DNA of 64,000 nucleotides from Paenibacillus allorhizosphaerae (GCF_910594985.1 NZ_CAJVCE010000016.1:97726-161725), one strand, 5' to 3'; counted from the first letter of the stretch, positions 42,410 through 45,073 are shown. Notes: generated by a model from the sequence alone, not told the origin. Program-made: numbers and translations.

Positions 42410-42438
42410 TTGACAGTAAAAATAACCCATGGTATTAT
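42410..42438 (+). promoter_or_regulatory. Strong sigma-A-type promoter with an A-rich UP element upstream of the tRNA array.
   Basis: TTGACA at 42410-42415, a 17-bp spacer, and an extended -10 TGgTATTAT at 42430-42438. It is preceded by AAATAAAATAAAAAAAAGGG. Confidence 0.65.
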
Positions 42439-42523
42439 CACATCAGTAAAGCGGTAAAACATTAAAGTAATAACGCATGAAAGTATTTGGCGCGAAATCC
42501 ACGAAGAAAGGAAGGGATAGGCC

Positions 42524-42754
42524 ATGAGAAAGCCGTTATTTATGAATCCATGTAAGCAGTCTTATCAGCAGCAGCCATTTGGCTATCAAGAGATTACGAT
42601 CAATCATGAGTATGCCGATTTTTGGCGCGAACATGGCATTAATGGGCAATTTTTGAGCTTCCTTAAAGCCTATATCCATCCGATCAATCGTAGCTTTTAC
42701 GTGCCACGTTTGGGCCGTTCGATCCTTAAAAGAGGAGGAACGGTGCTAACGTGA
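42524..42754 (+). CDS. Small hypothetical ORF between the promoter and the tRNA array.
   Basis: 76-aa ORF with a GAAAGGAAGGG RBS. No homology recognised. It could instead be a leader region. Confidence 0.25.
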   Translation: MRKPLFMNPCKQSYQQQPFGYQEITINHEYADFWREHGINGQFLSFLKAYIHPINRSFYVPRLGRSILKRGGTVLT

Positions 42755-42952
42755 TCTTGAATCGCGGACCGTTCTGAATCTGAATCCGTTGATCCATAGA
42801 TTTTGTACGTATAAGGCTACTTGCACTCAAGCAAGTGGTCCATTTGTGTTTGTCTTCTTTCGGGCGAGGTTCTCCGATAAACGACTCAAATGGTACCACG
42901 GCGGGGCGAGTAGCTTTTTCTATACACAAAAAAGAACATATGTTCCTCTCGT

Positions 42953-43042
42953 GAAGAGGTGGCAGAGTCCGGTTTATTGTATTCGTCTTGAAAACGAAAG
43001 AGGTTAGCGGACTCCAAGGGTTCGAATCCCTTTCTCTCCTCC
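42953..43042 (+). tRNA. tRNA-Ser (anticodon UGA); class II with a long variable arm.
   Basis: Anticodon loop CTTGAAA, T-arm AAGGGTTCGAATCCCTT, 3' CCA encoded. The acceptor pairing is imperfect in my manual fold, so boundaries are approximate. Confidence 0.45.
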
Positions 43043-43046
43043 ATAT

Positions 43047-43120
43047 GGACCGATGGCGAAGTTGGCTAACGCGGCGATCTGCAAAATCGTCAATCGCAGG
43101 TTCGATTCCTGCTCGGTCCT
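43047..43120 (+). tRNA. tRNA-Cys (GCA).
   Basis: Acceptor GGACCGA/CGGTCC. Anticodon loop CTGCAAA. T-loop GGTTCGATTCC. No encoded CCA. Confidence 0.6.
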
Positions 43121-43130
43121 TCAAAGATTT

Positions 43131-43207
43131 GGCGCATTAGGCAAGCGGGTAAGCCACACGACTTTCACTCGTGCATTCGGTGGGTTCGAATCCCCCATGC
43201 GTCACCA
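43131..43207 (+). tRNA. tRNA-Glu (UUC).
   Basis: Acceptor GGCGCAT/ATGCGTC. Anticodon stem CACGA/TCGTG with loop CTTTCAC. T-loop GGTTCGAATCC. CCA encoded. Confidence 0.65.
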
Positions 43208-43211
43208 ACAC

Positions 43212-43285
43212 GTGGAATTAGTTTAACGGTAGAACGGGTGCCTTCCAAGCATTAAGAATGGGTTCGATTCCCGTATTCCGCTCCA
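43212..43285 (+). tRNA. tRNA-Gly (UCC).
   Basis: The fold resembles Bacillus tRNA-Gly. Anticodon loop CTTCCAA. T-loop GGTTCGATTCC. CCA encoded. Confidence 0.6.
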
Positions 43286-43287
43286 AT

Positions 43288-43363
43288 GGTTCGGTAGCTC
43301 AGTTGGTAGAGCGATGGCCTGAAAAGCCATGCGCCGCTGGTTCGATTCCAGCCCGGACCACCA
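43288..43363 (+). tRNA. tRNA-Phe (GAA).
   Basis: Acceptor GGTTCGG/CCGGACC. D-arm GCTCAGTTGGTAGAGC. Anticodon loop CTGAAAA. CCA encoded. Confidence 0.7.
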
Positions 43364-43364
43364 T

Positions 43365-43438
43365 GGAGATCATGGCGAAATGGCCAACGCGACGGGTTGT
43401 GGCCCCGTTATCGCCGGTTCGATTCCGGTTGGTCTCCC
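43365..43438 (+). tRNA. tRNA-His (GUG).
   Basis: Acceptor GGAGATC/GGTCTCC. Anticodon stem ACGGG/CCCGT with loop TTGTGGC. Discriminator C. No G(-1) encoded in my parse. Confidence 0.5.
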
Positions 43439-43447
43439 TTAAAATAT

Positions 43448-43522
43448 TGCCTCTTAGCCAAGTTGGTAAGGCAGCGGTCTTTGAAGCCGCGATCCCAGGT
43501 TCGAGCCCTGGAGGGGCAGCCA
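43448..43522 (+). tRNA. tRNA-Gln (UUG).
   Basis: U1-A72 acceptor TGCCTCT/AGGGGCA. Anticodon loop CTTTGAA. CCA encoded. Confidence 0.65.
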
Positions 43523-43523
43523 T

Positions 43524-43612
43524 GCGGCTGTGATGGAATGGCAGACATGCGGGCCTCAGACGCTCGTGCAGCGAAAGCTCACTTGTGGGTTCAAGTCCCA
43601 CTGGCCGCACCA
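43524..43612 (+). tRNA. tRNA-Leu (CAG), class II.
   Basis: Acceptor GCGGCTG/TGGCCGC. Anticodon stem CGGGC/GCTCG with loop CTCAGAC. Long variable arm. CCA encoded. Confidence 0.55.
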
Positions 43613-43745
43613 AAAGTACATATCGATCGGTTCGCAAAGTGTGAGTTGACCATTAGATGGGTTGATGGTGGTTGAACGAAACACGAGCTGTAAAAAATCG
43701 GTGGGAGTCTAACCCGCTCCTAGCAAGGATTTACCGTGACCACAT

Positions 43746-43821
43746 GCTGGCGTAGCTCAATCGGTAGAGCAACTGACTTTTAATCAGTAGGTTGAAGGTT
43801 CGAACCCTTTCGCCGGCACCA
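43746..43821 (+). tRNA. tRNA-Lys (UUU).
   Basis: Acceptor GCTGGCG/CGCCGGC. Anticodon loop CTTTTAA. T-loop GGTTCGAACCC. CCA encoded. Confidence 0.65.
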
Positions 43822-43826
43822 AACTT

Positions 43827-43912
43827 GGGAGGATAGCGAAGAGGTCAAACGCAGCTGACTGTAAATCAGCTCCCTTCGGGGTTCGGCGGTTCAAACCCGT
43901 CTCCTCCCACCA
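43827..43912 (+). tRNA. tRNA-Tyr (GUA) with a long variable arm.
   Basis: Acceptor GGGAGGA/TCCTCCC. Anticodon loop CTGTAAA. T-loop GGTTCAAACCC. CCA encoded. Confidence 0.65.
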
Positions 43913-43913
43913 A

Positions 43914-43990
43914 CGGGATGTAGTTCAGCTTGGTAGAACGCTAGTTTCGGGTACTAGAGGCCATCGGTTCAAATCCGGTCATCCCGACCA
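43914..43990 (+). tRNA. tRNA-Pro (CGG).
   Basis: Acceptor CGGGATG/CATCCCG. Anticodon stem CTAGT/ACTAG with loop TTCGGGT. CCA encoded. Confidence 0.55.
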
Positions 43991-44051
43991 TAAACGAGCG
44001 TTGTCAGCGCAGAGGTCGTCAGGGGCTCAAATCCCCTTGGGGCCGCCATAT

Positions 44052-44126
44052 GCTGTCGTAGCTCAGAAAGGTTAGAGCGTCCGGCTGATAACCGGGAGGC
44101 CAGTGGTTCAAGTCCACTCGACAGCA
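44052..44126 (+). tRNA. tRNA-Ile (GAU).
   Basis: Perfect acceptor GCTGTCG/CGACAGC. Anticodon loop CTGATAA. T-loop GGTTCAAGTCC. No encoded CCA. Confidence 0.6.
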
Positions 44127-44134
44127 TCATATTT

Positions 44135-44209
44135 AGGGATATAGCCAATCGGTAAGGCAGCGCACTGTTAATGCGTGACATGCAGGTTCGAGTCCTGCTA
44201 TCCCTGCCA
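44135..44209 (+). tRNA. tRNA-Asn (GUU).
   Basis: Acceptor AGGGATA/TATCCCT. Anticodon loop CTGTTAA. CCA encoded. Confidence 0.6.
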
Positions 44210-44210
44210 T

Positions 44211-44283
44211 GGGGTCGTAGCTCAGTTGGAAGAGCAGCTGCTGTGCAAGCAGTAGGTCGGAGGTTCGATTCCTCTCGATTCCA
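44211..44283 (+). tRNA. tRNA-Ala (UGC).
   Basis: Acceptor GGGGTCG with the G3:U70 identity pair. Anticodon loop TGTGCAA. T-loop GGTTCGATTCC. CCA not fully encoded. Confidence 0.55.
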
Positions 44284-44290
44284 CCTAAAT

Positions 44291-44449
44291 GTAGGGGTCC
44301 ATGTTCCTTGGCCGGCGAGTCTGCCTCCAAAACAGACTGTGGTGGGTTCGATGCCCACGCCCCCTGCCATCTCGGGGTATAGAATAGCGGTCAAATTCAC
44401 GGGACTTTGACTCCCGCATCTCCGGTTCGAATCCGGATGCCCCTGCCAT
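44291..44449 (+). tRNA. Two atypical tRNA-like genes: a Gly(UCC)-like one with a 9-nt anticodon loop in my fold, and a Gln(UUG)-like one.
   Basis: T-arms GGGTTCGATGCCCAC and CCGGTTCGAATCCGG with 3' GCCA/CCA ends. Acceptor stems have mismatches in my manual folds. Boundaries are approximate. Confidence 0.35.
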
Positions 44450-44607
44450 CGGGACGCTTGAGGAAGTACATTCGTTCGCAAGTCGAATGGTTCGGTTCGC
44501 TGCCGAAGGTTCCGAAAATTAGCTTTTCCGTCCGTTGAAGCACGAACGACGGTTCGGATCGATCGGCTCCGTTTGAGAGCCGACATCGATAAAATGGACG
44601 GGTGCGT

Positions 44608-44681
44608 GGGCTTGTAGTTTAACTGGTAAAACACCCGACTCTTAATCGGCGAGAGTGTAGGTTCGAGTCCTGCCGGGCCCA
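44608..44681 (+). tRNA. tRNA-Lys (CUU)-like.
   Basis: Acceptor GGGCTTG/CGGGCCC. Anticodon loop CTCTTAA. T-loop GGTTCGAGTCC. No encoded CCA. Confidence 0.4.
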
Positions 44682-44693
44682 TATTTCTTCTTT

Positions 44694-44779
44694 GCGCCTC
44701 TGACGGAAATGGCAGACGTAGCGAGCTTAAAATTCGTGGTCGAAAGACACTGAGGGTTCGAATCCCTCGGGGCGCACCA
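44694..44779 (+). tRNA. tRNA-Leu (UAA), class II.
   Basis: Acceptor GCGCCTC/GGGGCGC. Anticodon loop CTTAAAA. Long variable arm. T-loop GGGTTCGAATCCC. CCA encoded. Confidence 0.55.
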
Positions 44780-44783
44780 ATAT

Positions 44784-44861
44784 CGGGAAGTAGCTCAGTT
44801 TGGTCAGAGCACCTGCCTTGGGAGCAGGGGGCCGCATGTTCAAATCATGTCTTCCCGACCA
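44784..44861 (+). tRNA. tRNA-Pro (UGG).
   Basis: Acceptor CGGGAAG/CTTCCCG. Anticodon stem CCTGC/GCAGG with loop CTTGGGA. CCA encoded. Confidence 0.6.
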
Positions 44862-44866
44862 TATGA

Positions 44867-45026
44867 GATATGACGGAATGGCAGACGTAGTGCTTGAGGA
44901 GCTGCGGATTCAAAGACCGTGGGAGTTCGAGTCTCCTTATTCCCATTTCAGCGCCTTTAGTTTAATGGCGAAGCAGTCCGGCTCATAACCGGCCATATGA
45001 TGGTCCGAGTCCATCAGGGCATACCA
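44867..45026 (+). tRNA. Two further tRNA-like genes: a class-II-like one with anticodon region TTGAGGA, and a CAU-anticodon (Met/Ile2-like) one.
   Basis: D-arm TGACGGAATGGCAGACGT is shared with the Leu genes. T-loops GAGTTCGAGTCTC and GGTCCGAGTCCATC. Anticodon loop CTCATAA. Acceptor stems are imperfect in manual folding. Confidence 0.3.
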
Positions 45027-45073
45027 ATTTACAATGAAAGGAAGAAGCCAACCTTGCGTTACAGGTGAACCCC

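Follow-up and report, generated by a model that had tools for sequence, protein, structure and literature searches.

The window analysed here is a stretch of 64,000 nucleotides (nt) from Paenibacillus allorhizosphaerae (GCF_910594985.1, NZ_CAJVCE010000016.1:97726-161725), with positions counted from its first letter, and the subject of this analysis is a dense array of tRNA genes that it carries. ARAGORN called 19 tRNA genes between 42953 and 45026, all on the + strand, which corresponds to about 9 genes per kb (19 genes in 2.07 kb), and the same 19 exceeded the gathering score of Rfam RF00005, with 37-75 bits. Together with three tRNA-derived remnants (Asp, Trp and Leu-like), the array reaches 22 members. 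An earlier note, made from the sequence alone, had counted about 22 tRNA or tRNA-like genes on one strand in about 2.1 kb, and this count is correct, since the three short gaps left uncalled are tRNA-derived; its anticodon assignments also agree with those of ARAGORN. For comparison, an alignment search with YkuK, the product of the gene that follows the array, was performed with one genome per species and yielded 59 loci in Paenibacillus, Cohnella and relatives (loci compared are designated by L numbers). From this comparison, the array is an accessory, non-housekeeping one, belonging to a conserved Paenibacillus/Cohnella module of a leader open reading frame (ORF), divergent tRNAs and YkuK. 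In the window the module comprises the following features.

42390-42438, + strand: sigma-A-type promoter found by consensus scan, with an A-tract (42390-42406), a -35 box TTGACA (42410-42415) and a TG-extended -10 box TATTAT (42433-42438)
42524-42754, + strand: leader ORF of 76 aa, with the invariant ribosome-binding site (RBS) GAAAGGAAGGGATAGG, a variable N-terminus and the conserved C-terminus SFYVPRLxRxILxxGGTVLT-stop
42739-42920, + strand: structured leader, candidate attenuator, 77-90% conserved in 10 loci
42934-42945, no strand: perfect palindrome GAACATATGTTC, Cheo/LexA-box-like, 7 nt before the first tRNA
42953-43612, + strand: tRNA block A, with Ser(UGA), Cys, Glu(UUC), Gly(UCC), Phe, His, Gln(UUG) and Leu(CAG) (ARAGORN, Rfam); the order Cys-Glu-Gly-Phe-His-Gln is orthologous in L007
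43613-43745, + strand: spacer 1, a non-tRNA element of about 130 nt and candidate structured non-coding RNA (ncRNA), containing CGGUUCGCAAAGUGUGAGU, a variable hairpin and GAACGAAACACAAGCUGUAAAAAAUC
43746-43990, + strand: tRNAs Lys(UUU), Tyr and Pro(CGG) (ARAGORN, Rfam)
43998-44048, + strand: 5'-truncated tRNA-Asp(GUC) remnant that retains the anticodon loop, T arm, 3' acceptor strand and CCA
44051-44285, + strand: tRNAs Ile(GAU), Asn and Ala(UGC), the Ala with G3:U70 (ARAGORN, Rfam)
44292-44368, + strand: tRNA-Trp(CCA) homolog, mismatched at C31.A39 and U6.C67 and with 2 nt inserted in the D loop (alignment to true Trp genes)
44373-44448, + strand: second tRNA-Gln(UUG), of another lineage than the first Gln and 92% identical to L009
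44449-44606, + strand: spacer 2, 158 nt, structured, found in this genome only, containing GAACGACGGTTC (44544-44555)
44607-45026, + strand: tRNA block C, with Lys(CUU), Leu(UAA), Pro(UGG), a pseudo-Leu and a CAU tRNA (ARAGORN, Rfam)
44864-44945, + strand: the pseudo-Leu of block C, a degenerate, Leu(GAG)-like pseudo-tRNA (18 bits, Rfam)
45065-45652, + strand: YkuK/DUF458 RNase H-like protein, its ORF starting 38 nt past the last tRNA

The called genes follow the order of this list, from Ser(UGA) to the CAU tRNA, non-periodically, in a single orientation and with no repeating unit. Intergenic gaps are mostly of 1-11 nt; five are longer, three of them tRNA-derived, and the maximum is 158 nt. 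Most of the array tRNAs present a full cloverleaf, a standard 7-nt anticodon loop and synthetase identity elements, which were read from the sequences as G-1:C73 for His, G3:U70 for Ala, U73 for both Cys and Gly, and U1:A72 for Gln. CCA is encoded in 14/19, being absent from Cys, His, Ile, Ala and Lys(CUU), and mismatches are limited to Ser (A2.C71, with U73), the second Gln (C1.U72), Lys(CUU), Glu (T stem) and the CAU tRNA (C2.A71), which bears out the imperfect stems and missing CCA ends pointed out in the earlier note. Of the isotype redundancy described there, the pairs of Pro, Leu (plus one pseudogene), Lys and Gln are present, whereas a second Gly was not found; the possible 9-nt anticodon loop does appear in the sequence, but its cause is the C31.A39 mismatch of the Trp homolog. 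Arg, Thr, Val, intact Asp and a clear initiator tRNA are not among the 19 ARAGORN calls.

Regarding the atypical members, blastn aligned the Asp(GUC) remnant with the 48 nt at the 3' end of the Asp genes from L006, L013, L014 and L015. The Trp homolog was not called by ARAGORN and is sub-threshold for the Rfam tRNA model (26.9 bits); it is 92% identical to its counterparts in L009-L012, and in L011 and L012 ARAGORN does call tRNA-Trp(CCA). The last gene, the CAU tRNA (44951-45026; Met or Ile2-type), has a non-canonical T-loop, UCCGAGU; with C4:G69, C5:G68 and an anticodon stem resembling that of Bacillus tRNA-Ile2, it may be a lysidine-dependent reader of AUA instead of a tRNA-Met.

The promoter has the spacing TTGACA-17-TATTAT and lies 515 bp from the first tRNA. 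Its -35 box, TG extension and A-tract, as well as the downstream RBS, are invariant or nearly so across nine orthologous loci, and because of this conservation the promoter is not a chance match; the consensus sigma-A promoter with an UP element proposed from the sequence is thus upheld. The array does stand behind it, as had been said, but the 76-aa ORF and the structured leader, which the note did not mention, intervene. ORFs of 55-76 aa sharing the C-terminus of the leader ORF occur in 11/11 Paenibacillus-type loci, and neither Pfam nor NCBIfam returned a match to it. In the structured leader, one hairpin (42739-42775) encloses the stop codon of the ORF; over the approximately 170 conserved nt that follow the ORF, two structures compete, namely a local hairpin at 42815-42840 and a long-range helix with the U-run AGUAGCUUUUU (42909-42920) at its end. 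For the structured leader, RNAalifold predicted 39 pairs, the single-sequence fold gave z = -3.8 and a terminator-like match was also obtained, features with which the leader may act as an attenuator.

The palindrome GAACATATGTTC resembles the core of the Bacillus LexA ('Cheo') box. Sites of the form GAAC-N4-GTTC number five in the window, against 0.93 expected (42934-42945, 44544-44555, 55934-45, 26119-30 and 16214-25), and an exact one lies 38-194 bp upstream of the first called array tRNA in L006, L007, L013, L014 and L015, with near matches at other loci. As no convincing promoter was found to overlap the palindrome at the array site, its LexA role is at most putative. Another of the sites precedes a gene for a DinG-like helicase (56604-59147), and 61810-62484 is occupied by an SRAP/YedK gene.

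Leader ORFs precede arrays in both genera (L005-L043), with W, N, H, Y and Q enriched 1.4-1.6x and A, V, T and G depleted. Among Cohnella loci with the full His-Gln-Glu-Asp-Pro-Asn-Trp array, 42-49% of the residues of the leader ORF 'MKNNLYPYERNWRQQDHEIET..' come from the amino acids of its own array, versus a background of 27%; in the window leader ORF, the enrichment in array amino acids was not significant (0.83 vs 0.76, p = 0.12). Codon sensing by the leader peptide is speculation, since the enrichment is modest and clear only for the Cohnella 'MKNNLYPYERNWRQQDHEIET' ORF.

A same-strand array of 3-14 tRNAs was present in 34/59 YkuK-clade loci, ending 31-491 bp upstream of ykuK in all but one of the 34 (L016, 2.1 kb), and arrays were missing from the 13 loci whose YkuK paralogs are most distant (45-52% identity), which share a different synteny. 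The window array is the longest found among the loci compared. The tRNA content differs even among close relatives; L067, a contig that is the closest metagenome relative, with 94% identity in YkuK, has just 8 tRNAs. A backbone order is still recognisable, as in L007, with Cys-Glu-Gly-Phe-His-Gln, the spacer element and then Glu-Asp-Ile-Asn-Ala-Met. Across 35 arrays, the core is formed by Glu(UUC) (33), Gln(UUG) (31) and His(GUG) (30), and the next commonest are Asn, Asp, Pro(UGG), Trp, Tyr, Ile, Lys(UUU) and Leu(UAA). None of the 35 contains Arg, Thr or an initiator tRNA, and Val was found once, as a Val(AAC) call in L037. The Cohnella loci are syntenic across species and the Paenibacillus flanks are unrelated; the flanks of the window module match no other locus, and the distribution of arrays among Paenibacillus species is patchy, with several relatives lacking one.

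The tRNAs of the window array are 80-99% identical to those of arrays from other species (including an 89% match of Asn in Cohnella), versus 67-73% to the housekeeping Glu, Lys and Asn tRNAs of P. algorifonticola. The latter species has array as well as housekeeping tRNAs, and within its genome the identity between array Glu and housekeeping Glu is 71%. These identities suggest that array tRNAs constitute a lineage separate from the housekeeping set. Firmicutes commonly hold long same-strand tRNA operons (PMC8421152, PMC4758250), and the strong promoter and the canonical look of most genes would suit the ordinary Bacillus-type operon that the earlier note kept as an alternative. Such a housekeeping operon is already contradicted and we give it almost no credence, because the array is diverged from housekeeping isoacceptors, has no rRNA linkage and varies in content and position among close relatives, several of which lack it. 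Consistent with what the note had stated, Rfam detected no rRNA in the window, and the absence of Arg, Thr, Val, intact Asp and a clear initiator, together with a leader ORF and attenuator-like leader before the array and a nuclease gene after it, is also foreign to a housekeeping set. Neither rrn linkage, nor a conserved position or order, nor sequences near those of the genus housekeeping tRNAs were found, and the set and context of the tRNAs vary among relatives instead of being conserved as a core operon.

Decay of past duplications, leaving a relic with no present function, would explain the three pseudo or damaged members, the mismatches in several others and the range of 3 to 19 tRNAs among loci. 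We regard this explanation as very improbable, considering that different species share promoter, RBS, leader and embedded element with 75-90% conservation, that the adjacency of array and ykuK has been maintained in two genera, and that the identity of individual tRNAs from one species to another reaches 99%.

The two non-tRNA spacers of about 130-150 bp noticed earlier are both real (43613-43745 and 44449-44606), but the first is a conserved element and not filler. Spacer 1 is 78-86% identical over 10 loci, a conservation equal to that of the tRNAs, and RNAalifold gave it a multi-stem fold of 32 pairs, six with compensatory changes, mostly in the variable hairpin. Since its single-sequence fold is unremarkable (z = +0.29), the case for an RNA is built on conservation and modest covariation. 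Rfam returned no match to it at E <= 10. A covariance model of the element matched only these loci, L006-L014 included, and the metagenome contig L068, and neither spacer 2 nor any Cohnella locus, so that spacer 1 is limited to one Paenibacillus subgroup; L005 and L067 retain just its 5' third. A search of metagenome contigs with a spacer-1 19-mer identified one true homolog (L068), and the motif was not found in IMG/VR. Four further contig matches to the 19-mer are probably due to chance, their likeness being confined to the 19-mer, and a hammerhead, T-box, 5S RNA, internal promoter or small ORF were rejected by eye. Spacer 2 opens with a GUACAU..GGUUCGC motif, as spacer 1 does, and its fold beats shuffled controls (z = -2.4); GAACGACGGTTC within it is the second GAAC-N4-GTTC site of the array. 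No homolog of spacer 2 was detected in any locus examined.

No terminator-like site was found between the last tRNA and the ykuK ORF. The true start of YkuK is probably the ATG 9 nt further on, because a 100%-identical homolog (P0121) has 192 aa. The protein matches PF04308 above the gathering score and shows an RNase H fold with conserved acidic residues. Beyond ykuK, and at some distance upstream of the array, genes and RNAs with a predicted role in RNA processing were identified.

45898-47259, + strand: RtcB 3'-phosphate RNA ligase of a divergent clade (Pfam PF01139, E = 5.6e-68)
47400-47660, + strand: conserved YrlA-like ncRNA between rtcB and the slipin gene
47816-48949, + strand: slipin (SPFH/Band-7; Pfam PF01145)
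34564-35523, + strand: divergent YhaM-like HD/OB 3'-5' exoribonuclease paralog (NCBIfam PRK13480, 276 bits vs a cut-off of 460)

RtcB scores below the NCBIfam equivalog cut-offs, and the same RtcB clade (77-85% identity) is found downstream of ykuK in about 20 loci. The non-coding stretch that separates rtcB from the slipin gene is conserved and measures 555 bp. The core of its ncRNA (47487-47558) is a circularly permuted tRNA-like unit, in the order T arm, loop-closed acceptor stem, D arm and anticodon-like hairpin with a variable loop; an Rfam 'tRNA' match at 47515-47586 is part of this permuted RNA and no tRNA gene. Against the YrlA model (RF02553), it scored 33.2 bits over model positions 27-81 only, below the gathering score of 69, and for this reason it is called YrlA-like and not filed as a member; no gathering-level YrlA match was obtained with Rfam in seven related loci either. 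The ncRNA is conserved in six loci from two genera (Paenibacillus and Cohnella), upstream of slipin genes, and shows compensatory changes in the T stem and in the closed acceptor stem.

The slipin is widely conserved in Paenibacillus and adjoins RtcB or YkuK in L003 (an RtcB pseudogene), L015, L026 and L046, the same-strand pairing of RtcB and slipin being also seen in L026 and, with the pseudogene, in L003. As a marker of arrays it was rejected, being widespread, and the slipins of P. hexagrammi and P. alba have no adjoining array. In P. hexagrammi (L003, 8591-9459), the RtcB upstream of the slipin is split in two frames, probably a pseudogene, and there is no array, which therefore denotes decay of the repair module in a relative. 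The YhaM-like protein has a homolog with 65% identity at 1327-2283 of L067, 2.4 kb upstream of the array. In Bacillus subtilis, YhaM is among the exonucleases that trim CCA-containing tRNA precursors, and the paralog may belong with the module, in connection with the trimming of tRNA 3' ends. PADLOC matched none of YkuK, RtcB, slipin and the YhaM-like protein, so that the module is not a catalogued defence system.

In the relatives, the repair genes are exchanged. The order in C. boryungensis is tRNA array, YkuK, Ro60/TROVE, DUF6847, RlaP and RtcB, and the order Ro60-DUF6847-RlaP-RtcB, sometimes with Hen1-Pnkp after it, is found in many Cohnella species (tblastn). Slipin or RtcB directly follows ykuK in L026, L043, L044 and L046, and in L067 the leader ORF, tRNAs and YkuK are succeeded by Hen1, Pnkp, Tpt1/KptA and TatD. 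Most array loci have repair genes in the 10 kb downstream. With RtcB-slipin, Ro60-RlaP-RtcB and Hen1-Pnkp-Tpt1 as neighbours, one module is thus joined to three ligase systems.

The wider surroundings of the array are those described in the earlier note, which had placed it inside a defence island. This label is fair, because the following systems are present in the window around the array.

1565-3637: TraG/VirB4-like ATPase
14818-22737: complete Wadjet-type four-gene set (DUF2397, DUF2398, SbcC-like ATPase and DUF3323/DUF2399)
27306-32384: candidate AAA+ system
51844-55348: McrBC pair, the N-terminal region of McrB being PD-T4-1-like

Within a four-gene block at 27306-34165, an AAA_5 ATPase matches the candidate defence family PDC-M26A. 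At 1565-7563, on the left of the window, part of an integrative conjugative element (ICE) is predicted from the TraG/VirB4-like ATPase and a glucosaminidase-type cell-wall hydrolase.

This context bears on the idea that the array moves horizontally and originated in a phage, ICE or plasmid, where it would match the codon usage of the element or evade a host defence that targets tRNAs. The TraG/VirB4-like ATPase, cell-wall hydrolase and several defence systems of the window would fit such an origin, as would the unmatched flanks of the module, the patchy distribution among Paenibacillus species and the similar-sized arrays known in phages and plasmids (PMC4758250, PMC6409571). We nevertheless consider it unlikely. 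A DNA search with positions 42400-49000 against 50,697 phage and 72,556 plasmid records returned no close match, only generic tRNA similarity covering <=17% of the query; tRNA-less RtcB genes from P. larvae pPLP3 and B. laterosporus were also returned by the plasmid and phage searches. Neither the YkuK clade nor the spacer motif was found in IMG/VR, no integrase, transposase or homing endonuclease adjoins the array, the conjugation-type genes are about 39 kb away and the Cohnella loci are syntenic across species. The resemblance to mobile or phage-like tRNA arrays drawn in the note is therefore not supported, whereas the array is indeed accessory, redundant, partly decayed and rRNA-unlinked, in a variable defence/ICE-type region. 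The note missed the leader ORF, the ykuK gene directly downstream and the context of RtcB, Y-RNA-like RNA and slipin, which together assign the array to a probable RNA-repair island.

Taking these observations together, we lean towards the view that the array would be the tRNA part of a chromosomal RNA-damage-response island that combines spare tRNAs with repair, a function proposed from gene content and neighbourhood; the module would probably restore translation after the action of tRNA-cutting toxins. In this model, the conserved strong promoter would transcribe the short leader ORF and the structured leader, perhaps an attenuator, and transcription would run on through the 19 intact and three decayed tRNA genes, the element of about 130 nt and ykuK, presumably as one transcript, with the RtcB ligase, the Y-RNA-like tRNA mimic and the slipin coming next. 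Once tRNAs are depleted or cleaved by ribotoxins or through another translational stress, the module, if inducible and if its tRNAs are charged, would supply fresh ones, while RtcB (in relatives, Pnkp-Hen1 or Ro60-RlaP-RtcB) would reseal the broken ones. Loss of any single favoured tRNA stops translation, and divergent replacements plus a ligase would restore it.

The composition of the arrays is compatible with this proposal, as the array lineage is dominated by Glu, Gln, His, Asn, Asp, Tyr and Lys isoacceptors. These are single tRNA species for their split codon boxes and carry queuosine or 2-thiouridine-type wobble bases. They are also classes that known anticodon nucleases attack: colicin E5 cuts the Tyr, His, Asn and Asp tRNAs, PrrC cuts tRNA-Lys and zymocin-type toxins cut the Glu, Lys and Gln tRNAs; moreover, Pnkp-Hen1 repairs ribotoxin-cut tRNA. 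The proposal draws further on the position of the arrays beside ykuK, the repair genes near most of them, the divergence from housekeeping tRNAs, the retained identity elements and the conservation of promoter, RBS, leader ORF C-terminus and leader structure. To our knowledge, the sole experimental lead to the purpose of supernumerary tRNA arrays is one cyanobacterial operon. This long array is silent by default, is induced with the neighbouring rtcB under translational stress and aids survival (PMC8421152), and since it is co-induced with rtcB and favours survival, this precedent supports the logic of spare tRNAs.

Several points weigh against a spare-tRNA and repair island. PADLOC revealed neither a toxin nor an anticodon nuclease in the island, the arrays contain no Arg tRNAs, which colicin D-type toxins target, and Pro(UGG), Trp and Ile are common in them yet are not classic toxin targets. 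With three members decayed, selection on individual genes must be loose. Furthermore, the housekeeping comparison covers three isoacceptors, all from another species, and the structural model of YkuK matched only a generic RNase H fold. Finally, about one third of the array loci have no repair gene within 10 kb, among them L005-L014, with the closest YkuK among sequenced genomes, and the array-YkuK unit can therefore stand alone.

A different use of the same genes appears doubtful to us but deserves consideration, namely that the array tRNAs serve as decoys for toxins, or as RNA cofactors or signals for repair proteins, like Y RNAs or the proposed Band-7-associated tRNA. A tRNA mimic already stands beside RtcB and slipin in the island, the array tRNAs are strongly diverged from the housekeeping ones, and some are mismatched, truncated or have odd T-loops; in addition, a sponge role has been proposed for cyanobacterial array tRNAs (PMC8421152), and an RtcB operon is known to receive signals from damaged tRNA fragments (Hughes et al. 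2020, cited by PMC12776372). A pure decoy, however, would not need the cloverleaf, 7-nt loop and identity elements that most members keep; CCA is encoded in 14/19, and the Anabaena array tRNAs are reported as functional (PMC8421152).

An extended form of the spare-tRNA and repair proposal, which we put forward tentatively and with low confidence, is that ribosome stalling on a leader ORF rich in codons read by the array would flip the attenuator, perhaps with a LexA-type operator as a second input. The module would then be a self-contained, undescribed operon that senses tRNA damage and replaces the damaged tRNAs, with divergent spare tRNAs that may be toxin-resistant, a new structured RNA of about 130 nt, YkuK clearing or processing damaged tRNA, and interchangeable ligases (RtcB, Pnkp-Hen1 and Ro60-RlaP) alongside. 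If true, this would provide the first function for YkuK/DUF458 and a general rationale for supernumerary tRNA arrays in bacteria. Even in the simpler proposal, the linkage of YkuK, array and repair genes points to a first role for DUF458/YkuK, a family so far uncharacterised, and attention is drawn to two conserved RNAs that lack annotation and to a leader that is a candidate for translation sensing. The idea of spare tRNAs appears here independently in Firmicutes, with much sharper genomic evidence than for the cyanobacterial operon, and is directly testable in culturable Paenibacillus.

Among known systems, the window array can be compared with the L-arrays (Santamaria-Gomez et al. 2021, PMC8421152), which are also long, same-strand, operon-like, redundant and patchy, adjoin rtcB and other RNA-processing genes, and for which a backup or sponge role during translational stress has likewise been put forward. 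Genes in the same orientation, close enough for co-transcription and in non-periodic order are found in both. L-array genes are supernumerary to a complete housekeeping set, and those of the window array may be so too, with indirect support in that the array lacks several essential isoacceptors, P. algorifonticola has both kinds of Glu and some relatives have no array. Regarding horizontal spread, the patchy distribution and unrelated Paenibacillus flanks agree with that of L-arrays, yet the Cohnella synteny and the lack of phage or plasmid copies in the records searched do not. L-arrays were defined outside Firmicutes, with horizontal spread as a hallmark and often a homing endonuclease (PMC8421152), which the window array lacks. 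In contrast to them, YkuK is fixed at the 3' side, a leader ORF and structured leader are found at the 5' side, an ncRNA-like element lies inside, and the arrays of YkuK loci usually have 3-9 genes. Regulation also differs, since direct repeats and TrcR operate in Anabaena (PMC10272220), whereas here a candidate attenuator-like leader and a LexA-box-like palindrome are present.

Tran et al. 2016 defined a tRNA array unit by at least 20 tRNA genes and at least 2 per kb, with Paenibacillus among the listed genera (PMC4758250). A very high density, of about 9-10 genes per kb, is a common trait, and that of the window array, about 9 per kb, is well within this definition. Its count is 19 by confident calls, one short of 20; the damaged Trp raises it to 20, and the truncated Asp and the pseudo-Leu raise it to 22. 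The Firmicutes arrays of that study were largely rrn-linked housekeeping clusters, and no link with YkuK or repair genes was reported for them (PMC4758250).

With respect to RNA repair, operons of Rsr(Ro60)-Y RNA-RtcB, of RtcB-Band-7 with b7a-tRNA and of Pnkp-Hen1 are described (bioRxiv 10.1101/312249; PMC12776372; Chen et al. 2014, PMC4201824). One RNA-repair system, predicted by Burroughs and Aravind in 2016 (as summarised in bioRxiv 10.1101/312249), combines RtcB, Band-7 and a tRNA-like RNA, and the window shares its arrangement, with rtcB adjoining a slipin gene and a tRNA-like ncRNA between them. The permuted core at 47487-47558, below the YrlA threshold, would correspond to the tRNA-like RNA of that system. 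In keeping with the 'syntax' described for RNA-repair operons, relatives swap Ro60, RlaP, Hen1, Pnkp and Tpt1 at the same position. The ncRNA of the window is a permuted, YrlA-like one, and the accounts consulted mention no multi-gene array of true tRNAs, no YkuK/DUF458 and no leader ORF. In the literature searched, there was likewise no account of a fixed pairing of tRNA array and YkuK/DUF458, of a conserved leader ORF and structured leader before such arrays, of the embedded element of about 130 nt, or of an array-YkuK unit attached to three different repair systems.

Phage tRNA clusters offset host anticodon nucleases, and the Pnk and Rnl1 enzymes of phage T4 repair PrrC-cut tRNA-Lys; the T4 tRNA cluster also contains two small stable non-tRNA RNAs. 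Unlike these phage clusters, the window array is located in a bacterial chromosome and associated with host-type repair operons, with no phage homologs found. In brief, the two systems would share the strategy of replacing and repairing cut tRNAs, and they overlap in their Lys, Tyr, His, Asn, Asp, Glu and Gln isoacceptors.

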